Part shown: piece after piece, positions 869-42,171 of the stretch
Layout of the letters: every line of letters begins with the position of its first letter
Numbering within the stretch: position 1 is the stretch's first letter
Assembly: GCA_016182365.1 (NCBI GenBank)
Contig: JACOXO010000014.1
Span: 2,294 to 66,293 of the forward strand
DNA: 64,000 nt
Reading direction: 5' to 3'
DNA from: Candidatus Gottesmanbacteria bacterium
GTDB taxonomy: Bacteria > Patescibacteriota > Microgenomatia > JACOXO01
Made by a program: the position numbers and the translations under genes
Notes under the pieces: model-generated
Told to the model about the DNA's origin: nothing
Databases searched by the model: none
The model's input: only the letters and a program-made list of their open reading frames with translations

Positions 869-885
869 CCCGACGTAACGTCGGG
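869..885. repeat. 17-bp perfect palindrome CCCGACG-TAA-CGTCGGG in the ftsA-ftsZ spacer; member of the CCCGAC/GTCGGG hairpin family
   Basis: Read directly: 7-bp GC-rich stem, 3-nt loop, in an otherwise AT-rich spacer; the same arms recur at 8131-8197, 8480-8518, 25954-25981 and 42130-42171. Confidence 0.6.
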
Positions 886-8130: not shown

Positions 8131-8197
8131 TGCCGACGCCACGACAAAAGCGTCGGGGGTCGGCATCCCGACTTAAGTCTAAGACTTAACGTCGGGA
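8131..8197. repeat. Cluster of nested/tandem GC-rich palindromes (TGCCGAC...GTCGGCA enclosing CCGACGC...GCGTCGG; then TCCCGAC-TTAAGTC-TAA-GACTTAA-C-GTCGGGA)
   Basis: Inverted repeats read directly; CCCGAC/GTCGGG arm family; lies between lepB and the GIY-YIG pseudogene. Confidence 0.6.
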
Positions 8198-8216
8198 TCC
8201 CTATATAATTGGGTAG

Positions 8217-8479
8217 ATGGCTTTTGTTTATATTTTAAAAAGTTTTAAAAAAGAAAAGTATTATATTGGTACTACTGAAAATTATGAAAGACGCGTTAGG
8301 GAACATAATAGTGGTAGAGTGAGATCAACTAAATATATCAGACCTCTTAATTTAGTTCTTGTCAGCATTATAATAGTTTAAGTAAAGCTAGAAAAATAGA
8401 ATATAGATTAAAAGCATTAAAGAGAAGAGATTATTTAGAAAAGATTGTTAGAGACGGTAAAATAAAGATGACCGTTTAG
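8217..8479 (+). pseudogene. GIY-YIG nuclease-domain gene, disrupted by a frameshift/small deletion
   Basis: Frame 1 from 8217 encodes MAFVYILKSFKKEKYYIGTTENYERRVREHNSGRVRSTKYIRPLNLVLV, then stops at 8379-8381. The C-terminal half (KARKIEYRLKALKRRDYLEKIVRDGKI) continues in the +2 frame to TAG at 8477-8479. Compare the intact paralog at 25669-25941. Confidence 0.6.
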
Positions 8480-8518
8480 TCCCGACGCAAGGTCGGGATG
8501 CCAACTATAACGTCGGCA
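8480..8518. repeat. Two adjacent hairpins (TCCCGAC-GCAAG-GTCGGGA; TGCCAAC-TATAAC-GTCGGCA) immediately after the GIY-YIG pseudogene stop
   Basis: Same arm family as 8131-8197; begins at the base after the stop codon. Confidence 0.55.
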
Positions 8519-8560
8519 CTCAACGGCAGAGTGCTTCGTTCACACCTGCCCGCCGCAGAT

Positions 8561-8632
8561 GGATCCGTAGCTCAGCGGTAGAGCGTTCGGTTCACATCCG
8601 AAAGGTCAGAGGTTCGATACCTCTCGGATCCA
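8561..8632 (+). tRNA. tRNA-Val (anticodon CAC), CCA not encoded
   Basis: Manual cloverleaf: acceptor GGATCCG/CGGATCC, D-arm GCTC-AGCGGTA-GAGC, anticodon arm TTCGG-TTCACAT-CCGAA, T-arm AGAGG-TTCGATA-CCTCT, discriminator A. Confidence 0.85.
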
Positions 8633-8696
8633 CAGCTTTGGCAAGCGGGTCGAAGAGGTTGGTGGTTCGACGCTTTAGGTAGGACTCCAATGGTTA

Positions 8697-20514: not shown

Positions 20515-21696
20515 CAAATAAATAATGATAAAAATTATATTAACAGTTGCGGAAACGAAGATTACCTGATGAGGATTTAAATTAATATATTTTTTCCACT
20601 TTTCTCTTTTAAAAATTTCTGCAAAGCCGAAACTTATCATAGGCAGGCAACTTATTAGCATTCTAATTCCAAATGATCCACCTTGGTCCCAGCTACTCCA
20701 GGATGAAATAAAATAAAACATTATAAGAATTGTGACAATAAATATTTTGATAAATTTCTCTTTAACTTTAAAAAGTCCTAAAAATCCCAAAAAAACAAAA
20801 GGTGTCCATAAAAGAAGACCGGTATTTTGGTTCAGAAGCAGTCGTGAGAGCTGAGGATTAAAAAAGGAAAAACCTTCATTTCCGTCCAGATAAGGACTCA
20901 AGAATGTGCCGTAAATAGTTAACCAAAAAATGATTTGTATTGTAAAAATGGATACAAATCCAGTGGTAAATAAAATACCTTTTCTCATCCTGTCATTTTC
21001 TTGCATAAAGAAATAAACAGCAGGAATAATCAGTAACCCATCTATCGTTCTGGAAATTGCTATCCATCCCAAGGAAATCCCGGCAAATAACCATTTAATT
21101 AGGTTTTGCTTTTGAGTCAAAAGAATGAAAAATAAAACACTTGCAAAAAAAAATGATGCAGCGTGTGAATTCACAGGATCAAATGATGTGTAAAAAAATA
21201 GATTTGTTGCAAAGAGCGTAAATAACGTTGCTGATCGGGCGACTTTACTTGAGTAGTATTTAGCTAAGGTGCAATAGAGAAAATACAAACCTGCAAATAC
21301 CACAACAATATTTATAATTCCTGAAAATATCTGGTAAATTTGTAATTCACCAAGTTGATTGCATGTAAAAGTAGTTTCTAATGCGCAGTGAAAAACCCCA
21401 GTTACAAACAAGAAAGGGAGCAATATTAGTGCAGGCCCTGGAGGGTATTTGTTTACCAAAAGTCCTGTATTTGAAGTCCATTCATTAATTGAAAATAACT
21501 CAAATTCGTTTTCAAAGTTAAAATCCTGATCAAATGCTAAGGATTTAGCAATCGAGTAATAGTATCTTCCATCTCCCCATACAACCGATCCCACAATTTT
21601 GATATGAACAAGGAAAATTATTAAACAGATTATAAAAGAAATTAGAAAAATCCTTTTATCCATGCTGTAATTGTATCGTTTTGGTACAATGGCCAC
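20503..21696 (-). CDS. Polytopic membrane protein, possibly GT-C mannosyl/glucosyltransferase-like
   Basis: About 11 TM helices, N-terminal loop YPPGPALILLPF; only minus-strand gene inside the glycan cluster; function inferred from context. Confidence 0.4.
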   Translation of the reverse strand: MAIVPKRYNYSMDKRIFLISFIICLIIFLVHIKIVGSVVWGDGRYYYSIAKSLAFDQDFNFENEFELFSINEWTSNTGLLVNKYPPGPALILLPFLFVTGVFHCALETTFTCNQLGELQIYQIFSGIINIVVVFAGLYFLYCTLAKYYSSKVARSATLFTLFATNLFFYTSFDPVNSHAASFFFASVLFFILLTQKQNLIKWLFAGISLGWIAISRTIDGLLIIPAVYFFMQENDRMRKGILFTTGFVSIFTIQIIFWLTIYGTFLSPYLDGNEGFSFFNPQLSRLLLNQNTGLLLWTPFVFLGFLGLFKVKEKFIKIFIVTILIMFYFISSWSSWDQGGSFGIRMLISCLPMISFGFAEIFKREKWKKYINLNPHQVIFVSATVNIIFIIIYLLTH

Positions 21697-22439
21697 AAAT
21701 GATTTCAGCAGTTGTTATTACAAAAAACGAACAGGAAATAATTAGCAGGTGTTTAAGTAAACTTAAATTTTGCAATGAAATAATAATTGTTGATGATTTT
21801 TCAACTGATAATACATTAAAAATTGCCAAAAAGTATACATCAAAAATATTCAAACATCATCTTTCTGACAATTTTTCTGACCAGAGAAATTTTGGACTTA
21901 GGAAAGCTAAAAACAACTGGGTTCTATTTGTTGACAGTGATGAAATAATTACATTCTCTTTAGCTAAAGAAATTACTAGTAAAATAAACAATTCTTCAAA
22001 TGATGCATATTATATTAAAAGAATAGATTACTTTTTTGGGAAAAGAATGAACTGGGGAGAATTTTTGAACAAAAAGTTTATAAGACTGATTAAAAAAAAT
22101 AAGGGGAAGTGGGTACGTCCAGTACATGAATACTGGTTTACAAAGGGAAAAGTGGGAATTCTTAATAATCACATAAAGCATTATTCCCATTCATCAATTA
22201 GTGTGCTTATTAATAAAATAAACTATTACTCGGGTATCAATGCAAATTATCTTTATTATCAGAAAGAGCGAGGAAGTATGTTTGAAGTATTTTTTTACCC
22301 GAGTATAAAATTTATTCATAATTATATACTCAAACTTGGATTTTTAGATGGTTTTTACGGTCTAATATTTTCCATGTTTATGTCTTTACACTCGTTTCTA
22401 TCCCGATTAAAACTTTATTTTCTTTGGTATGGTCGCTAG
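21681..22439 (+). CDS. Glycosyltransferase family 2
   Basis: ISAVVITKNEQEII...VDDFSTD N-terminus, DSDE motif; 252 aa. Confidence 0.8.
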   Translation: MVQWPQMISAVVITKNEQEIISRCLSKLKFCNEIIIVDDFSTDNTLKIAKKYTSKIFKHHLSDNFSDQRNFGLRKAKNNWVLFVDSDEIITFSLAKEITSKINNSSNDAYYIKRIDYFFGKRMNWGEFLNKKFIRLIKKNKGKWVRPVHEYWFTKGKVGILNNHIKHYSHSSISVLINKINYYSGINANYLYYQKERGSMFEVFFYPSIKFIHNYILKLGFLDGFYGLIFSMFMSLHSFLSRLKLYFLWYGR

Positions 22440-23535
22440 ATTTTTATTCTACTCGATATTTGCCGTATACCCTTTGGGTTTAATAGTTTATTTTCCAATA
22501 GCTAGCCAGGGTAAAATACCGTTTTTAGATATTATTACTTGTTTATTTATAATTTCAACTTTATTTGTAAGAAATCCGGTCAAAAAAATATTTCTTAAAA
22601 AACAAATTCTTATTTTTTTATTTGTTTCTCTACTAGCTATTGCAATAAATATGATTTTAAAAAATCACTATTCAATATCAGATCTATTTTATTTTATCAG
22701 AATATCATTTTATTTTTTGTTTTACATCAGAATATTTTTTGTGTTTAATAAGTCAAACGCATTCAGGATTAATTGGATACTTTTAATATCAGGATTTGTA
22801 TTTTCTGCCTTCGGGCTTTTACAATATCTTTTATACCCGGACCTTAGAAATTTAATGTATTTAGGATGGGATCCTCACTACTTTAGGTTATTTTCAACAG
22901 TTTTTGATCCTAATTTTGCAGGAATAATCATTGTCTTAACTTTTTTCCAACTAATATTCATAATGTGGTTAGATAAAAAGAGTGTCTATCGTTTTCTCTA
23001 TCCACTGCTGATTATAATTCTTCTAGTTGCGATATACTTAACTCGGTCAAGAAGCGCTTATTTATCATTTATCTCGGGTATGATAGTTTTAATATTTTTC
23101 AAAAAATATATAAACAAAATGCTTATTGGAGTTACAGCAATCGTTATTTTGCTATCAAGTTTTATTCCTAAACCAGCATTTAATGTATTAGATACTTTTA
23201 GGGTTTCCTCATCTATAAGCAGAGTCAATAATTGGTTGATTGCTTTAAAACTTGGGTTTGCAAATATTTTAACCGGAGTTGGTTATTCTGAGGCTAGTTT
23301 TTCAGATTCTTCGTTATTGTATATCTTCGGCGCAACTGGAATTTTGTCTTTAGCAGCTCTTTTTAATGTTCTATTTAAAATATTTCGATTTTCCCTAAAG
23401 AAAGACAAAGAATTATTTGTTATCACTGTTGTAGTTATTGTGAGTAGTTTTTTCAACAATACGCTTTTCTATCCCTTCGTAGCAGTATGGTTTTTTGCTT
23501 TTTTGGCGTCTTCTGTTATCCGTTATTCCTCATAA
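22429..23535 (+). CDS. O-antigen ligase / polymerase-like (Wzy/WaaL family) membrane protein
   Basis: About 10-12 TM helices with a large periplasmic loop near the C-terminal third, in a GT cluster; assignment by topology and context only. Confidence 0.45.
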   Translation: MVARFLFYSIFAVYPLGLIVYFPIASQGKIPFLDIITCLFIISTLFVRNPVKKIFLKKQILIFLFVSLLAIAINMILKNHYSISDLFYFIRISFYFLFYIRIFFVFNKSNAFRINWILLISGFVFSAFGLLQYLLYPDLRNLMYLGWDPHYFRLFSTVFDPNFAGIIIVLTFFQLIFIMWLDKKSVYRFLYPLLIIILLVAIYLTRSRSAYLSFISGMIVLIFFKKYINKMLIGVTAIVILLSSFIPKPAFNVLDTFRVSSSISRVNNWLIALKLGFANILTGVGYSEASFSDSSLLYIFGATGILSLAALFNVLFKIFRFSLKKDKELFVITVVVIVSSFFNNTLFYPFVAVWFFAFLASSVIRYSS

Positions 23536-24230
23536 ATGATTTTTAATTCTTTTTGGCTGGTATTGCCGGCTATATCTATTGCTTTGATAATAATATTATT
23601 TTCGCCGGTTGATAAGGTAAAGTTAATATTAAAGTTGCCGTTTGGGTCTGTATATACAAATCTGTCATTTACGGTAATATCTGTATTTTTATCTGTTTTT
23701 CCTTCGATTGTAAGCTGCTTGTCTCGTGTTGTTGTGTTAGTTTGCGGTTTTGTAATTTCCAACTGTGGTGGAACATTTAAATAAGATACTGTAAAAGTAC
23801 TTGAGGGTTGACTTTGTAAGTTGTTGATTTTAGATATGGTGTAAATTTCATTATCTCCTGATTGAAGGCGGGCCTTATTAAAAATAAATGTTCCTTCTTT
23901 GCCAACTAACACTTCGTCCTGCTTTGAGCCATTAACATATAAAAGTACAGATGAACCTGATGTAGAAGAACCTGTAATAGAAATAGTTGCGGTATTTGTT
24001 GCAGTAACTGGAGGATCGAGAATTGGTTCTAATACAATTGTCTCATCATTAGCGATATTAACATTGTCCTTTTTAAATCCGCCAATAAAGCTTCCAATTG
24101 ATGATAGCGCAGGTATACCACCAACTATAAAAAGTATAAGAAGAACAATAATTGCAATGATAGTTATTGCAGTAAACTGCATATTTTTTTTATCCTGTGA
24201 ATAGCGTCTTCGTAGTGGATTATGTCTCAT
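23523..24230 (-). CDS. Membrane-anchored protein with Ser/Thr-rich linker and Ig-like beta-sandwich domains
   Basis: N-terminal TM (FTAITIIAIIVLLILFIVGG), low-complexity ITGSSTSGSS, beta-rich remainder; no catalytic motif recognised. Confidence 0.45.
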   Translation of the reverse strand: MRHNPLRRRYSQDKKNMQFTAITIIAIIVLLILFIVGGIPALSSIGSFIGGFKKDNVNIANDETIVLEPILDPPVTATNTATISITGSSTSGSSVLLYVNGSKQDEVLVGKEGTFIFNKARLQSGDNEIYTISKINNLQSQPSSTFTVSYLNVPPQLEITKPQTNTTTRDKQLTIEGKTDKNTDITVNDRFVYTDPNGNFNINFTLSTGENNIIIKAIDIAGNTSQKELKIIYEE

Positions 24231-24327
24231 AATGTTTTTTTATTATATACCTTTGAGCCTAAGGTCCCGCAGTATGCGGGACAACCTACGCTTTACGAAA
24301 GCGCCGCCCCGCCTGCCAAAGCCTTTG

Positions 24328-24399
24328 AGCCAACGGTGAGAGTCGAACTCACGACCTGCTGTTTACGAAACAGCTGCTCTACCACTAAGCTACGTTGGC
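24328..24399 (-). tRNA. tRNA-Thr (anticodon CGT), CCA not encoded
   Basis: Reverse complement folds: acceptor GCCAACG/CGTTGGC, D-arm GCTT-AGTGGTA-GAGC, anticodon arm GCTGT-TTCGTAA-ACAGC, T-arm GTGAG-TTCGACT-CTCAC, discriminator T. Confidence 0.85.
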
Positions 24400-24432
24400 A
24401 AATGGCGGGCAGGTCTACCAACTGAGCTAAGA
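24400..24432 (-). other. tRNA 5'-fragment-like sequence (GCCGTCTTAGCTCAGTTGGTAGA...) abutting tRNA-Thr
   Basis: Reverse complement reads like a canonical tRNA acceptor plus D-arm but then diverges and cannot complete a cloverleaf; possible remnant. Confidence 0.3.
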
Positions 24433-24463
24433 CGGCTTAAATCTAGGGATTTTTTTACCATTT

Positions 24464-24871
24464 TTAACTTTCATATTCCCAAGGAAATTTTACCACTTCA
24501 TTGATTTTTCTTAAATAATAGTCAGGTTTTATTTCAGATTTATTGGTAATATATAGACAAGCTGTTTTTACTATTGCGCCTTCATTTTCTAGGTATTGTT
24601 TTGCAGTAATTAAACTTCTACCAGTTTCTAGTATATCCTCAACAAGCAATACTTTTTTGTTATTGATATCTTCATTAATTATTGACGTAATTCTTCTATT
24701 ATTGCCAATTTTTTTCACAGTCAAACAATACATATCACCAACTTTAAGTAAACTGGATAAAATCCGCGCAGGTACAATACCACCTCTAACTATTCCTACA
24801 AGAATATCAGGCGAATAGTCAATCTTCTTGCTTAAATCTATAATTTCCTTCTGAAACCCCACCCAATTCAT
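24464..24871 (-). CDS. Type I phosphoribosyltransferase-domain protein (purine PRTase-like)
   Basis: PRPP-binding motif VLLVEDILETGRSL; 135 aa. Confidence 0.7.
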   Translation of the reverse strand: MNWVGFQKEIIDLSKKIDYSPDILVGIVRGGIVPARILSSLLKVGDMYCLTVKKIGNNRRITSIINEDINNKKVLLVEDILETGRSLITAKQYLENEGAIVKTACLYITNKSEIKPDYYLRKINEVVKFPWEYES

Positions 24872-25656
24872 AATTTCTGTTTCTTAAATATAACTAGATG
24901 CCACAAAGTAACATTTTCCATTTTTTTAAATCTTGGATACTGTTCCATCCACTCTATAGTTGGAATCATAGATTTATTTTCAACCAATTTTAAATCATAT
25001 TTTTCTCCAGCCGTTTGATAAATTGATACTTTTCTAACCAAATCTGCCAGTGTTCCGAAATCCGGCCTTGTTACCATGCAGGCAAATTCTTTTGAAGATA
25101 TTTTTTCAAATTTAATATTGTAACCATGGCGTTTACGATTAAAATAATCATAGTCGGGAATTATTGTTTGAAGTTTTCCGGTATTTTTTAAAAGCGATGA
25201 CAGTTTTTTAAATGCAAAGTCAATATTCAATACATGGTTTAAGGACATTATCGCGGTTATATAATCAAATTTCTTTTTTGAAACAAAGGATTCCAACATC
25301 GTCTTTTCCATTTTGATTTTTGGGAAATATTTTTTTGCTATTTCAATATTTCTTTTTGCCGGCTCTAAACCAATTGCTGATTTTACACCTAATTTATAAG
25401 CTTCATTTAACATCCACCCAGTTCCGGCACCAACATCTAGAAGATCTTTATTTTTCCATTCAGATGTGTATGGCAATAAATATTCCCAAAATACTCTAGT
25501 TAGAGGGGAATCTAATCCTACGCCATGGTAAGGCCAGCCTGTATCCGGTAAATCATACTGGTGAGGATTAATAGCTCTATTTAATACATTGCCCATATAG
25601 TTAGTGAGCGGGCGATGGGAATTGGACCCACTGTCTTCTCCTTGGGAAGGAGACAT
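24868..25656 (-). CDS. Class I SAM-dependent methyltransferase
   Basis: Motif I LLDVGAGTGWM; 262 aa; substrate unknown. Confidence 0.7.
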   Translation of the reverse strand: MSPSQGEDSGSNSHRPLTNYMGNVLNRAINPHQYDLPDTGWPYHGVGLDSPLTRVFWEYLLPYTSEWKNKDLLDVGAGTGWMLNEAYKLGVKSAIGLEPAKRNIEIAKKYFPKIKMEKTMLESFVSKKKFDYITAIMSLNHVLNIDFAFKKLSSLLKNTGKLQTIIPDYDYFNRKRHGYNIKFEKISSKEFACMVTRPDFGTLADLVRKVSIYQTAGEKYDLKLVENKSMIPTIEWMEQYPRFKKMENVTLWHLVIFKKQKL

Positions 25657-25668
25657 TTTACCGGTAAA

Positions 25669-25941
25669 CTACGCCCGCTTAGTTAAATAATTTAATAATC
25701 TTCGTTTAATATAACCTCTTCCAAATCCAGTTTTCAATTGTTTCTCTCTTACCAGTGCGTCCTTTTTATTAAGACAAGCTTCATAATAAACTAGCTTTAT
25801 TTTATCAAAACTTTTTGTAGTTTCGTTACTCTTTGTTAAATGTCCATCAACTCTATTCTTAAGGTTTTCAGATGAACCAATATAAAATTTATTTCTACCT
25901 CGTTTAGTATCAATACATTGAAGTACGTATGTATAAAACAT
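25669..25941 (-). CDS. Stand-alone GIY-YIG nuclease-domain protein (90 aa)
   Basis: YVL...FYIGSSENLKNRVDGH...KLVYYE...REKQLK motifs of the GIY-YIG fold; intact paralog of the pseudogene at 8217-8479. Confidence 0.8.
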   Translation of the reverse strand: MFYTYVLQCIDTKRGRNKFYIGSSENLKNRVDGHLTKSNETTKSFDKIKLVYYEACLNKKDALVREKQLKTGFGRGYIKRRLLNYLTKRA

Positions 25942-25953
25942 ATTTTATCCTTG

Positions 25954-26009
25954 CCCGACCAAAGCTTCGCATTGTGTCGGGTCCGCCAAATTGCGTTGCT
26001 TTTGGCGGA
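25954..26009. repeat. Two GC-rich hairpins (CCCGAC-N16-GTCGGG; TCCGCCAAA-N10-TTTGGCGGA) in the 5' leader of the GIY-YIG gene
   Basis: Inverted repeats read directly; first shares the CCCGAC/GTCGGG arms of the repeat family. Confidence 0.5.
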
Positions 26010-26111
26010 GGAAGGAAGCATTCTACCGTTGAATTACCACCGCTTCTGGGCTAATTTTATCAGAAATACATAAATTTTGTATGTATGTTATGATCAAAAT
26101 ATAATCTAACT

Positions 26112-26372
26112 ATGTCTATTGTAGCTCCAACCGCACCAATTTTGACTACGCAAGATAAGATTCTAAGCCTTTTAGTTTTTATTATTATATTAATTCTGGG
26201 TTGGGCATCAATAGAAGTATTTGTTGGTATGCTTCAATTACTTTTCGCTCCAAAACAATCAACAGTCAAAATAAATGCACCAAAACGTATAAAAATAGGA
26301 TGTCTTACGCTTTTTATAGCTGTATTAATATTCTTTTTGCTTGGATCTCTTATTCGCGCTATGGGAGGATGA
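26112..26372 (+). CDS. Small hypothetical membrane protein (2 TM)
   Basis: 86 aa, two hydrophobic helices; no homolog recognised; could be non-coding. Confidence 0.35.
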   Translation: MSIVAPTAPILTTQDKILSLLVFIIILILGWASIEVFVGMLQLLFAPKQSTVKINAPKRIKIGCLTLFIAVLIFFLLGSLIRAMGG

Positions 26373-26961
26373 GAACATTGCCGGCGTGAATTATATCAGG
26401 GTTGGCGAGATTATTAGCTCTTGCAATCTCAACCCATTTGTAGCCATCATTATAATGCGCTACAGCTATTTTCCATAGGCTATCTCCATGAACAACTGTA
26501 TAGTTAGAACTTGAAATCTCTTCACCTTTTATTTGCGGCGTATCGATTTGCTGTGATGCGGTTGGTTCTTCAACTAAAGTAGGTTCCGGACTAGGAGAAA
26601 CCGCATTTTGTGCAACTAATATCGGCGTTACATTAGGAATAATTAATTGTTGCCCAACTTCTAAGGATTCCTGACCTGACAAATTATTAGATTCAGCTAT
26701 ATCTTTCCAGTTATAACCGCTCTGGAAATATTTTTCAGATACCGACCATAATGTTTCTCCTTCAATAACAGTATGAGTTATTGGAAAATCAACTTGACCG
26801 ATTTCTTCTGTCTGTTGTCCTTCCTCAGTAATTTCTGGTTCGCTTTTAGAAGAAAAATAATTAAACAAAAGAACGCCGACGATTAAAACTACTAAAAGTC
26901 CAAGACCCATAGATATATATGAATCGGATAGATCTAATTCTTTCATTAAACGTTTCCACAT
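26359..26961 (-). CDS. Membrane-anchored protein with two LysM peptidoglycan-binding domains
   Basis: N-terminal TM; two LysM repeats (HTVIEGETLWSVSEKY...GQQLIIP and YTVVHGDSLWKIAVAHY...GNVLILP). Confidence 0.8.
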   Translation of the reverse strand: MWKRLMKELDLSDSYISMGLGLLVVLIVGVLLFNYFSSKSEPEITEEGQQTEEIGQVDFPITHTVIEGETLWSVSEKYFQSGYNWKDIAESNNLSGQESLEVGQQLIIPNVTPILVAQNAVSPSPEPTLVEEPTASQQIDTPQIKGEEISSSNYTVVHGDSLWKIAVAHYNDGYKWVEIARANNLANPDIIHAGNVLILP

Positions 26962-27058
26962 AGTTAATTACCTTTCAAATATTAATATTTTTACGAATAA
27001 TAAAATTTTCTCTAGGATTGTAAGAAATGATTTCAAAAAATGCAAGGGGGCAAATATA

Positions 27059-27135
27059 TGGCGGGATCGACGGGATTCGAACCCGCGGCCTTTTCCTTGA
27101 CAGGGAAACGCTCTAACCAGTTGAGCTACGACCCC
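27059..27135 (-). tRNA. tRNA-Asp (anticodon GTC), CCA encoded
   Basis: Reverse complement: acceptor GGGGTCG/CGATCCC, D-arm GCTC-AACTGGTTA-GAGC, anticodon arm TTTCC-CTGTCAA-GGAAA, T-arm GCGGG-TTCGAAT-CCCGT, discriminator G then CCA. Confidence 0.85.
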
Positions 27136-27218
27136 TTGAATTTATTGTTAAATTTATATTCGGATAATAACAGATTGTTGTAATGAGGTCAACGAATCTG
27201 GTAGTATTAGCGTGTATG

Positions 27219-28991
27219 ACAAACAAAGAAGTGGCCGTAATGCTTCGCGAAGTTGCAGCAGCCTTTGTAATCAAAAATGAAAACCGTTTTAGAATCATAG
27301 CTTATGAAAGAGCTGCTGATAGTATTGAACATCAAACTCAAAGTGTTGAGGAACTGTGGAAAGAAGGAAAAATAAAGGAAATTCCAGGTATTGGACCAAA
27401 TATTGCTCAACATTTGGGTGAATTATTCACAAAAGGCAAGGTAGCACATTTTGAAAATGAAAAAAAAGGACTTCCTAAAGCTATGTTTTCACTTCTGAAC
27501 TTACCAGGTTTTGGAGCTAAAAAAGCTTTTAAATTAACTAGAGAACTCAATATTAAAGATTCAGACGACCCTTTTAAAAAACTCAAGGAAGCTGCTCAGG
27601 CTAATAAAATAGCCTCAATTGAGGGATTTGGGGAGAAGTCAGAACAGGACATTCTTACTTCTTTAGAATCTTTTCAGAAAAAAGAGGCAAAACTTTCAAG
27701 AATGTTACTACCTATTGCTTACGATATTGCTACCAGAGTAATCAATTACCTGAAGAAGTCAAATAGTGTTATAGAAATTTATCCTTTAGGAAGCCTGCGA
27801 AGAATGGTTGCAACTGTAGGTGATATTGATATAGCAATTTCATCAAATCAAGCAGAAAAAGTAATAGAATATTTTTTAAAATTCCCGGAAGTTGGGAAAA
27901 TAATTGATAAAGGCAAAGAAACCACCTCAGTTGTCCTAAAAAACGGCGTACAGGTAGATATAATGGTTCAACCGGAAATTGCATTCGGAGCTCTCCTGCA
28001 GCATTTTACAGGTTCAAAACACCACAATATTGCGCTTCGTGAGTATGCTTTAAAAAAAGATCTATCATTATCAGAGCACGGAATTAAAGATCTCAAAAGA
28101 GCAAAAGAGCAAAAGAGCAAAGAATTTAGCAATGAGGAAGTTTTTTATAATTTCCTCGGTCTTGATTGGATTCCACCAGAATTAAGAGAGGATACAGGTG
28201 AAATTGAAGCTGCTCAGAAACATAATCTACCTAATTTAGTTGAACTTTCCGATATTAAAGGTGACCTGCATTTACATTCCAACTATGATTTAAAACCATC
28301 TCATGATTTAGGACATAATTCATTTTTAGAAATTCTTAATAAAGCAACAGAATTAAAATATGAATATATTGCATTTTCCGAGCATAACCCTAAACAATCC
28401 GGACATAATATATCAGATATTATTGATATAATTAAAAGAAGAAAACAAACTATTGATAAAATTAATTACTCATTAAAAAGTGATCGAGTACATTTTTTTA
28501 ACATGATGGAGACAGATATACTTCCAAATGGCTATCTAGCGCTCCCTAAACAGACTTTTGAGTATATTGATGCTACAATTATTTCAATACATTCCTCATT
28601 CGACCAATCCAGTTCTGATATGACAAAAAGAATACTCAAGGCGTTATCATATTCTAAAGTTAAAATCTTTGGTCATCCAACAGGAAGACTTATTGAGAGA
28701 AGAGAAGGTGTTAATGCCAATTGGTTTGAAATTTTTAACTTTTGTAAAGCGAAAAATATTGCTCTTGAAATAAACGCAAATCCAAACAGACTTGATCTTC
28801 CTGATATGTTAGTAAGAGAGGCAGTGAAAAACGGCAACAAATTTGTTATTGATACAGATGCTCATCAAATTAATGAAATGAATCTTATGCGTTTTGGTGT
28901 ATCAGTTGCAAGGCGTGGTTGGTTGGAGAAAAATGATATACTTAATACTCTGCCATATAGTGAATTTAAAAAGTGGTTATTAAATTTATAG
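27219..28991 (+). CDS. polX: DNA polymerase X family protein with C-terminal PHP phosphoesterase domain
   Basis: HhH motifs (IPGIGPNIAQHL, LPGFGAKKA), Pol-beta nucleotidyltransferase motif GSLRRMVATVGDIDIAIS, PHP His cluster (GDLHLHS...FSEHN). Start moved to the in-frame Met after the tRNA. Contains a (CAAAAGAG)x3 tandem repeat at 28095-28118. Confidence 0.85.
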   Translation, partial: TNKEVAVMLREVAAAFVIKNENRFRIIAYERAADSIEHQTQSVEELWKEGKIKEIPGIGPNIAQHLGELFTKGKVAHFENEKKGLPKAMFSLLNLPGFGAKKAFKLTRELNIKDSDDPFKKLKEAAQANKIASIEGFGEKSEQDILTSLESFQKKEAKLSRMLLPIAYDIATRVINYLKKSNSVIEIYPLGSLRRMVATVGDIDIAISSNQAEKVIEYFLKFPEVGKIIDKGKETTSVVLKNGVQVDIMVQPEIAFGALLQHFTGSKHHNIALREYALKKDLSLSEHGIKDLKRAKEQKSKEFSNEEVFYNFLGLDWIPPELREDTGEIEAAQKHNLPNLVELSDIKGDLHLHSNYDLKPSHDLGHNSFLEILNKATELKYEYIAFSEHNPKQSGHNISDIIDIIKRRKQTIDKINYSLKSDRVHFFNMMETDILPNGYLALPKQTFEYIDATIISIHSSFDQSSSDMTKRILKALSYSKVKIFGHPTGRLIERREGVNANWFEIFNFCKAKNIALEINANPNRLDLPDMLVREAVKNGNKFVIDTDAHQINEMNLMRFGVSVARRGWLEKNDILNTLPYSEFKKWLLNL

Positions 28992-42129: not shown

Positions 42130-42171
42130 TCCCGACGTAAAAGTCGGGATCCCGACACAAAGTCGTCGGGA
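42130..42171. repeat. Two tandem hairpins TCCCGAC-N6-GTCGGGA and TCCCGAC-N8-GTCGGGA in the atp operon leader
   Basis: Perfect 7-bp arms, same family as 869-885, 8166-8197 and 8480-8498; followed by an A8 run. Confidence 0.6.

Follow-up and report, generated by a model that had tools for sequence, protein, structure and literature searches.

Transfer RNA (tRNA) genes are classical integration sites, and K.P. Williams is said to have found in 2002 that the anticodon loop and the T loop are the sublocations typical for integration within them. Two ways of tolerating an insertion in an essential RNA gene are known, namely splicing, as in introns, and restoration of the gene end, as at the attachment (att) sites of integrases. 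In Caldiarchaeum subterraneum a tRNA-Thr(GGU) gene is disrupted by a recombinase-bearing element (Sugahara et al. 2012, PMC3293823), and replacement via a mobile element was proposed by the authors (PMC3293823). Group I introns interrupt tRNA genes of Patescibacteria (Nakagawa et al. 2026, PMC13011429), and free-standing GIY-YIG homing endonucleases are known, such as SegB in the tRNA cluster of phage T4, as is the concept of collaborative homing (Edgell et al. 2010, PMC2988022). Here we describe a tRNA-Thr(CGU) locus at which a complete tRNA-Thr gene sits between the two parts of an older tRNA-Thr gene. The locus lies in a 64,000-nt stretch (the window) of contig JACOXO010000014.1, which is AT-rich (∼31-39% G+C); proteins encoded beside the locus identify the source as Candidatus Gottesmanbacteria, within the candidate phyla radiation (CPR) or Patescibacteria. 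Taken as a whole, we consider it likely that the resident gene was replaced from inside by a nested cognate cassette; that such cassettes are mobile is a more tentative proposal, evenly balanced at best and perhaps somewhat less probable than that.

The locus belongs with cases of mobile-element-associated disruption or replacement of tRNA genes, and a full-text literature search found no report of a tRNA nested in a cognate tRNA gene or of the arms that flank the cassette. With tRNA-targeting integrative elements it shares the tRNA target, a fragment beside a functional tRNA, a repeat that includes the tRNA 3′ end and a hotspot location, but it differs from them in having 5′ and 3′ fragments around a complete foreign tRNA, an insert of only ∼106 bp, no integrase and a repeat that is not a crossover core. 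The Caldiarchaeum case likewise shows population heterogeneity at a tRNA-Thr locus and a 5′ fragment upstream of a second complete allele; however, it is archaeal, its 1.8 kb of intervening DNA encodes a recombinase, bulge-helix-bulge introns are involved, and it has neither a nested arm-tRNA-arm cassette nor a matching 3′ fragment. Patescibacterial group I introns interrupt tRNA genes in the same phylum and share position 35/36 with one of the nests described below (L021; comparison loci are given by L number), but they are self-splicing ribozymes of >200 nt that restore the host tRNA, whereas the cassette lacks a ribozyme but brings a complete tRNA with it, is found in the D stem and T loop as well, and leaves the host gene to decay. 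The likeness to SegB and collaborative homing consists of a small GIY-YIG gene next to tRNA genes, interruption of a conserved target and replacement of alleles among relatives; the differences are that only some nests have such a neighbour and that function is restored by a carried gene copy rather than by splicing. Finally, integron gene cassettes and miniature inverted-repeat transposable elements (MITEs) are similarly short and promoter-less, have inverted or complementary ends, depend on external promoters, and occur in several copies with conserved ends and different cargo (here Thr and Val), but the present cassettes show no attC R/L-box consensus, integron integrase or target-site duplication and are found only in cognate tRNA genes.

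Anatomy and ancestry of the tRNA-Thr nest

Read 5′ to 3′ on the minus (tRNA) strand, in window coordinates, the locus consists of nt 1-23 of an old tRNA-Thr(CGU) gene, CCTGCCCGCC, ATTT, a complete tRNA-Thr, CAAAGGCTTT, GGCAGGCGGG and nt 24-73 of the old gene, followed by CAAAGG, TATATAATA and the start of the next gene. The old 5′ fragment (24414..24436), GCCGTCT TA GCTC AGTTGGTA GA, covers the acceptor strand, U8-A9, the D stem, the D loop and half of the 3′ D-stem strand, and its D arm is that of the uninterrupted tRNA-Thr in L027 and L029. A C-rich 5′ arm (24404..24413) and a leader of 4 nt read from the sequence (24400..24403) separate it from the inner tRNA-Thr(CGU) (24328..24399), which ARAGORN calls as tRNA-Thr(cgt), which scores 71.9 bits against Rfam RF00005 (gathering score 29), and which has the features expected of a functional tRNA and is presumed to be one; it has no encoded CCA. 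Its trailer (24318..24327), of which GCTTTGGCA(R)GCGGG recurs in the tRNA-Val cassette described below, leads into the G-rich 3′ arm (24308..24317). The old 3′ fragment (24256..24307), GC G GCGCT TTCGTAA AGCGT AGGTT GTCCCGC-ATACT-GCGGGAC CTTAGGC T, aligns with the single tRNA of relatives. It opens with the GC that is missing from the D stem of the 5′ fragment and continues through the anticodon arm, which has the same loop, TTCGTAA, as the inner tRNA, to a variable region, a non-canonical T-arm hairpin, the acceptor 3′ strand and the discriminator T. As far as the anatomy alone is concerned we have high confidence that the sequence is best parsed as a ∼106-bp arm-tRNA-arm cassette that entered the D stem of the resident gene, splitting it after nt 23.

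The outer gene is a pseudogene, because its acceptor strands GCCGTCT and CTTAGGC pair at only 3/7 positions, its T loop lacks TTC and its spliced form receives no ARAGORN call. Even with introns allowed ARAGORN called no outer tRNA at any nest; it models anticodon-loop introns only, so outer genes were spliced by hand. The old T arm (24264-24282, minus strand) is now a perfect 7-bp hairpin, GTC-CCGC-ATACT-GCGG-GAC, whose outer GTC/GAC matches the T stem of L026; a T-loop cassette that once stood there and was deleted in its interior could have left the inner CCGC...GCGG as its footprint.

The original prediction had read part of this locus as a 62-bp GC-rich insert flanked by a 10-bp direct repeat of att-core or target-site-duplication type. 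Its observations were accurate. The 10-mer, CCTTTGAGCC on the plus strand, occurs exactly at 24250-24259 and 24322-24331 (with no other exact copy in the window), the second copy overlapping the 3′ end of tRNA-Thr; the 62 bp between the copies (24260-24321) have 61% G+C against ∼31% in the flanks and contain the hairpins GTCCCGC-AGTAT-GCGGGAC (24264-24282) and CGCTTT-ACG-AAAGCG (24289-24303); and the tRNA acceptor/D-arm piece placed near 24400-24432 is the real 5′ fragment, a few bases offset. The meaning given to them must be revised in part. On the minus strand the 10-mer (GGCTCAAAGG) reads GGC + T + CAAAGG, the 3′ terminus that two tRNA-Thr genes share by homology, copy 1 being the old-gene end with the locus trailer and copy 2 the inner tRNA end with its trailer. 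The 62 bp consist of a single arm of the cassette together with nt 24-73 of the older gene, now displaced; the anticodon arm of that gene forms the second hairpin. At copy 1, GGCTCAA(A/G)GGTATATAATA is conserved in L025-L029. The 10-mer alone is no evidence, because exact 10-bp direct repeats spaced ≤100 nt number 20 in the window against 18.5 ± 5.8 in Markov simulations (with ≥5 G/C, 2 against 1.5); it carries meaning only through its identity, in both copies, as a tRNA-Thr-type acceptor end, discriminator and trailer. Rfam searches over 24100-24600, at the gathering threshold and at E≤10, matched only the inner tRNA and nothing in the 62 bp or the 5′ fragment, and a blastn comparison of the locus with the window returned no long second copy; its short matches at 8544-8554 and 8635-8649 are the arms of the tRNA-Val nest.

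The junction between inner tRNA and 3′ fragment is not an assembly artefact, because independent Logan assemblies (L001, L002) reproduce it base for base. Relatives were aligned using as synteny anchor the downstream Ig-like membrane protein gene, whose open reading frame (ORF) occupies 23523-24230 with its ATG at 24230; its leader or promoter region (24231..24249, minus strand) contains the conserved TATATAAT, and TATATAATA is invariant across five relatives (alignment A1). The phosphoribosyltransferase gene upstream was rejected as an anchor, its homologues not being linked to tRNA-Thr. In L027, L028 and L029 (57-58% protein identity) and in L032 (35%) the tRNA-Thr(CGT) gene is single and unbroken, with TCAAGGGTATATAATA and the membrane protein gene directly after it, which is the empty site, and L025 (92%) has a quite different tRNA-Thr allele directly against CAAAGGTATATAATA; all five lack the 62-bp segment and one copy of the repeat. 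A sixth relative, L026 (87%), reads ...GTAAAGCGTAGGTC GTCGG TTCGATC CCGAC AGACGGC T CAAAGG. In the anticodon-stem strand it agrees fully with the window 3′ fragment, with which it shares GTAAAGCGTAGGT, and its acceptor AGACGGC is the exact complement of GCCGTCT in the window 5′ fragment. A composite of the window 5′ fragment, the start of the window anticodon arm and the L026 3′ end is called by ARAGORN as a perfect tRNA-Thr(cgt), and in alignment A1 the window 3′ fragment sits orthologous to the single tRNA of relatives. It is this orthology and the composite call that identify the outer pieces as the old resident gene and the tRNA with its arms as an insertion between nt 23 and 24. The earlier suggestion that remnants of insertion or replacement remain at this locus is thus borne out by the outer fragments and by the polymorphism among relatives. 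Look-ups of loci neighbouring a LysM gene (L033-L041) added a further empty-site relative (L033) and loci containing recombinases, and no further nests among them.

The inner and outer genes are xenologous. The inner tRNA-Thr shares 88% identity with the tRNA-Thr of L011 (Saccharibacteria) and 68% with the outer gene after splicing; that outer gene has its nearest match in the resident Gottesmanbacteria type of L027/L029, and the L025 allele is closest to the inner tRNA of L024. In three genomes whose neighbouring proteins are 87-92% identical the tRNA-Thr alleles differ by ≥20%, and this disparity indicates that xenologous replacement has recurred at a fixed locus. Encoded CCA is absent from tRNA-Thr of the Gottesmanbacteria lineage (window and L025-L029; GGCT-CAA...) and present in the nested tRNA-Thr genes of L007, L010, L013, L021 and L024; the discriminator is U in all, including Gottesmanbacteria. 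The contigs of L001, L002, L025, L026 and L033, five independent short-read contigs, end inside or exactly at the tRNA-Thr gene, which is consistent with strain-level allele heterogeneity breaking the assemblies.

Nests and arms at other tRNA genes

A second nest, encountered during a survey of GC-rich hairpins in the window, lies in a tRNA-Val(CAC) gene on the plus strand. Between an old 5′ fragment running from the D arm to nt 37 (8519..8544, 22/27 identical to the inner tRNA-Val) and an old 3′ fragment running from nt 38 to the T loop (8650..8670, 16/20 identical) stands a complete inner tRNA-Val(CAC) (8561..8632; called by ARAGORN, 70.3 bits in Rfam). Its 5′ arm (8545..8554) is CCTGCCCGCC, identical to that of the Thr cassette, and its 3′ arm (8640..8649) is GGCAAGCGGG, preceded by the shared GCTTTGGCA. 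The sequences outside the arms, CTCAACGGCAGAGTGCTTCGTTCACA and T CGAAG AGGTT GGTGG TTCGA, align to nt 11-37 and nt 38-58 of tRNA-Val(CAC). The insertion is placed at 37/38 because the split loop TTCACA/T of the old gene equals the inner loop TTCACAT. The old tRNA-Val has lost its T-stem 3′ strand and its acceptor.

Species-representative genomes, and then metagenomes, were scanned for the D arm and anticodon loop of the inner tRNA-Thr, which brought the sample to about 7 nests in 5 distinct genomes. In these CPR nests the insertion lies in the D stem, the anticodon loop or the T loop, with up to three layers. L010, from Candidatus Woykebacteria and recovered again as L022 and L023, is a D-stem nest at 23/24 with related arms, reading GCAGATG TAGCTCAATGGCAGA, CCTGCCTGCC ACTG, tRNA-Thr, CCAAGCTGC GGCAAGCAGG, then GC A GATGC TTCGCAA GCACT AGGTT .... 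L021 is a three-layer nest, in which the outermost tRNA-Thr(CGT) is split at 35/36 (TTCG/TAA) and a middle 5′ fragment, split at 23/24 and bearing the arm CCTGTCCACC, encloses the inner tRNA. In L013 (Saccharibacteria) the outer tRNA-Thr(CGT) is split in the T loop and the cassette flanks form a 12-bp helix (duplex p<0.002). The outer acceptor halves of L007 match (GCCGATG/CATCGGC-T-CCA) and its arm is GGCAGGCGGG, and in L024 only the 5′ fragment remains. The spliced outer genes of L013 and L021 are called tRNA-Thr(cgt) by ARAGORN with acceptor stems pairing 7/7, and minimum free energy (MFE) folds of the nests in other genomes reproduce nested cloverleaves. Later rearrangement is also visible: compared with L010, L021 has lost the 3′ part of its middle gene by deletion between ...GGC(T/C)CCAAGG ends, and in L010 the outermost acceptor strand is fused to the middle D arm. 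The 10-mer repeat of the window appears to be the same type of substrate, and its deletion would give a clean allele of the L025 type.

The arms set the nested genes apart. In the Thr nest of the window CCTGCCCGCC and GGCAGGCGGG pair by 8 Watson-Crick pairs with one G-U and one C-A, the flank duplex has an energy of -18.0 kcal/mol against -10.4 ± 2.8 for shuffled sequences (p ∼0.012), and the MFE fold of the locus pairs the two arms. Flank complementarity is significant in nests, and un-nested controls (L011, L016, L029) showed none. The window has exact CCTGCCCGCC at two places only, in both cases 4-6 nt 5′ of a nested tRNA; counterparts stand at the same place in L010 (CCTGCCTGCC) and L021 (CCTGTCCACC), and those of the 3′ arm are GGCAGGCGGG in L007 and GGCAAGCAGG in L010. 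Across all DNA examined, 68 tRNAs in total, arms were found only on nested tRNAs, the tRNA-Gly and tRNA-Asp of the window having none. From this restriction, and from the identical arms on the Val nest, the arms appear to be a portable module tied to nesting rather than a general tRNA processing signal, and the phenomenon is not confined to threonine. As in MITEs, the cassettes end in terminal inverted repeats (CCTGCCCGCC ... GGCA(R)GCGGG around the Thr and Val cassettes, with related ends in L010, L021 and L007); two copies are present in 64 kb, both within cognate tRNA genes, and no transposase was identified. We also considered whether the arms might be tRNA-Gly acceptor halves from a Gly-Thr tandem array, and rejected this since in L010 the tRNA-Gly and the arms do not match and since these arms recur on the Val cassette. 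Scans of viral contigs for arm-flanked tRNAs returned giant-virus tRNA arrays and 76 chance matches in GC-rich phages; just two of the viral matches lay near any tRNA, and in no case did the arms enclose one.

Origin of the nests

The nested anatomy, the orthology of the outer pieces, presence/absence polymorphism among relatives, recurrence across the CPR and the same arms on the Val nest are direct observations, as is the decay of the outer halves, and on them we base the following model. Because only 14-16 nt of the cassette lie upstream of its tRNA, transcription would have to come from outside, by read-through from the promoter or operon upstream of the resident gene. In L010 and L021 a promoter-like TTG-N-TATAAT can be read immediately before the outermost 5′ end; a promoter scan in the window was uninformative. 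The inner tRNA could then be released by RNase P and by RNase Z or exonucleases, with the arm helix keeping the inner cloverleaf from mispairing with the homologous outer halves. A cassette that enters its cognate gene would destroy that gene, become essential and hence persist, whereas one that entered a non-cognate single-copy tRNA gene would be lethal, and one in silent DNA would serve no purpose. The cassettes may form a mobile or recombinationally spreading family, passing between relatives probably by recombination or double-strand-break repair in which the split halves serve as homology arms; recombination through the outer halves would also account for chimeric outer genes, and deletions between repeated tRNA ends, such as the 10-mer, might later erase the remnants and leave a clean allele replacement. 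Candidates for the agent of insertion include a recombinase, a structure-specific nuclease (for example the small GIY-YIG proteins encoded nearby) or some other enzyme.

Several observations weigh against this account. The arms are conserved in sequence but without covariation, so that covariation lends no support to an RNA helix; such conservation would fit recognition by a protein. No target-site duplication flanks the cassettes (the junctions read GA and GC for Thr, ACA and TCG for Val, and the outer genes once spliced give exact tRNA sequences), no free cassette copy was seen outside tRNA genes, mobility thus being deduced rather than observed, and the sample of about 7 nests is a small basis. 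The outer fragments of the window carry acceptor types that do not match, GCCGTCT and CTTAGGC, which requires extra events such as recombination or further layers. Furthermore, no enzyme is tied to the cassette: a GIY-YIG gene adjoins only 2 of the ∼7 nests (with another at a tRNA-Gly nearby), there is none in L010, L013, L021 or L024, and the GIY-YIG proteins are of 81-90 aa with no recognizable DNA-binding domain.

The strongest competitor, which we nevertheless regard as improbable, is that integrase elements, such as a prophage or island, entered the tRNA 3′ end and were later deleted, the repeat being the att core or target-site duplication that remained. In its favour, the L021 and L013 nests lie at exactly the anticodon and T loops, the cargo between tRNA-Gly and tRNA-Thr differs among the window, L007 and L027, that interval holds a large serine recombinase and an IS110 transposase in L036-L041, and palindromic att half-sites could account for inverted arms. 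However, a classical integrase event does not match, because it predicts a restored tRNA with a 3′ fragment only, not a 5′ fragment exactly complementary in extent; here the 5′ piece ends where the 3′ piece starts (23/24 for Thr, 37/38 for Val, 35/36 in L021), and the functional gene is a complete foreign tRNA rather than a hybrid. The DNA between the repeats is itself tRNA-derived (arm plus nt 24-73) and orthologous to the tRNA of relatives, and the 10-mer, a tRNA end with its trailer, is statistically ordinary. No recombinase gene is found among the ORFs of window 21000-28500, the serine recombinase and IS110 occurring at the equivalent locus only in the distant relatives L036-L041, and every nest would need a deletion down to ∼35 bp plus the tRNA with both arms kept.

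Less probable still is a true intron, in which the arm-tRNA-arm unit would be spliced from an outer pre-tRNA to yield two tRNAs per transcript, with the arms as splicing signal. The ends of the insert do pair with each other right at the junction, 37/38 (Val) and 35/36 (L021) are known intron sites, the latter used by group I introns in Patescibacteria (PMC13011429), and in L013, L021 and L007 the outer tRNAs retain complete acceptor pairing and an encoded CCA. A group I intron was rejected, as it needs a P3-P8 core of at least ∼200 nt (RF00028) and the insert has ∼106 nt, 72 of them tRNA, with no ribozyme and no Rfam intron match at the gathering threshold or at E≤10. A bulge-helix-bulge intron, which calls for two 3-nt bulges with 4 bp between them, was rejected at the Thr, Val and L021 junctions: hand inspection found no such geometry, the ends pairing directly and the 4 nt before the 3′ junctions being unable to pair with the required exon nucleotides, and the organism is bacterial. 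Moreover, both outer genes of the window are defective (Thr with its 3/7 acceptor and no T loop, Val without T-stem 3′ strand and acceptor), those of L013 and L021 have non-canonical T loops (TGAAATC and ATTGAAT), and each outer gene shares its anticodon with the inner one and is therefore redundant.

A tandem tRNA-Thr array that decayed without any insertion, leaving a 5′ part, an intact middle copy and a 3′ part, is very improbable. Tandem tRNA duplication followed by loss is common and would explain the shared trailer CAAAGG, but in at least four independent nests, at four different positions, the fragments abut without gap or overlap, conserved complementary arms stand exactly at the breakpoints, the outer acceptor halves match each other and not the inner gene (L013, L021, L007), and inner and outer genes are too divergent for recent duplicates. 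Chance, that is a fortuitous 10-mer repeat beside tRNA-like strings in intergenic DNA, can be dismissed: 10-mer repeats at such spacing are indeed as frequent as expected, but chance does not provide for orthology to the tRNAs of relatives, the ARAGORN call of the composite, recurrence, or a second nest with identical arms.

Returning to nested replacement by a cognate cassette, a bolder extension, which we put forward as doubtful, is that CPR bacteria harbour a class of selfish cassettes, so far undescribed, for gene-in-gene replacement of tRNAs; these would be ∼100 bp long, promoter-less and bounded by conserved inverted arms (CCYGCCYGCC ... GGCARGCRGG). Insertion would possibly follow cleavage by a small GIY-YIG protein and be survived only in the cognate gene, and the full substitute copy would make the cassette addictive without splicing; over repeated rounds Russian-doll nests would arise and tRNA alleles would turn over fast, perhaps under an arms race with toxins or nucleases that target tRNAs. 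If the cassettes are mobile, they would add to splicing and gene-end restoration a third way of tolerating an insertion in an essential RNA gene, by supplying a whole replacement gene. Mobility would also explain why tRNA-Thr alleles at a single locus differ so much between closely related CPR genomes, why these tRNAs break assemblies and why tRNA finders may report odd fragments, and would offer a testable system for horizontal replacement of core translation genes in minimal genomes. On a practical level, annotators should be aware that GC-rich “structured” segments flanking tRNAs in CPR genomes can be the halves of dead tRNA genes.

Genes and hairpins around the nests

The ancestral gene order at the Thr locus is PolX, tRNA-Asp, LysM, tRNA-Gly, tRNA-Thr, Ig-like and Wzy, unmodified in L032, to which the window adds a GIY-YIG gene, a methyltransferase, a phosphoribosyltransferase and a DUF1653 remnant. 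The GIY-YIG nuclease gene (25669..25941, minus strand; 90 aa; Pfam PF01541, E=3.2e-13) abuts tRNA-Gly(CCC), the leading member of the ancestral Gly-Thr pair, on its 5′ side, and the nuclease ORF reads into the first bases of that tRNA. A truncated GIY-YIG gene (8218..8381, plus strand; 54 aa; PF01541, E=1.8e-9) with an in-frame stop lies directly upstream of the Val nest, and a third (81 aa; L007 6706-6951) directly upstream of the L007 Thr nest. All three genes share the orientation of the tRNA locus that they adjoin (window tRNA-Gly, Val nest and L007 Thr nest), and a role as accessory of the nests is possible, a lead rather than a finding.

The description of the locus as an integration hotspot, made in the original prediction, holds for the interval between tRNA-Gly(CCC) and tRNA-Thr(CGT), which is a second hotspot beside the nest and whose cargo differs by genome. 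The interval measures 5 nt in L032 and <170 nt in other compact relatives; it contains the methyltransferase and phosphoribosyltransferase genes in the window (24464-25678), YaaC and DUF333 in L027 (159-2867), GIY-YIG in L007 (6645-7002), and a large serine recombinase with IS110 in varying arrangements in L036-L041 (5686 onward). Right after tRNA-Gly in L036-L041 (5690-5760) there are GC-rich hairpins, GGGCGGCGC-GTA-GCGCCGCCC and GCGCGCG-TCAC-CGCGCGC, and the 10-mer GGGGCGGCGC is common to this region and to the junction of arm and 3′ fragment in the window (24310..24301). The DUF1653 gene remnant of the window, ATGAAAGTTAAAAATGGTAAAAAAATCCCTAG (24441-24474, minus strand), has an internal deletion (MKVK joined to NGKKIP); in L003 the DUF1653 gene is intact and comes next after that for the phosphoribosyltransferase.

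A family of GC-rich intergenic hairpins, (T)CCCGAC-N3-9-GTCGGG(A), occurs four times in the window (869-885, 8481-8497, 42131-42148 and 42151-42170; also 8152-8205) against an expectation of 0.01. Two of these hairpins bracket the GIY-YIG pseudogene and one lies in the anticodon loop of the outer pseudo-tRNA of L007; they may be repetitive extragenic palindromic (REP)-like or terminator elements.

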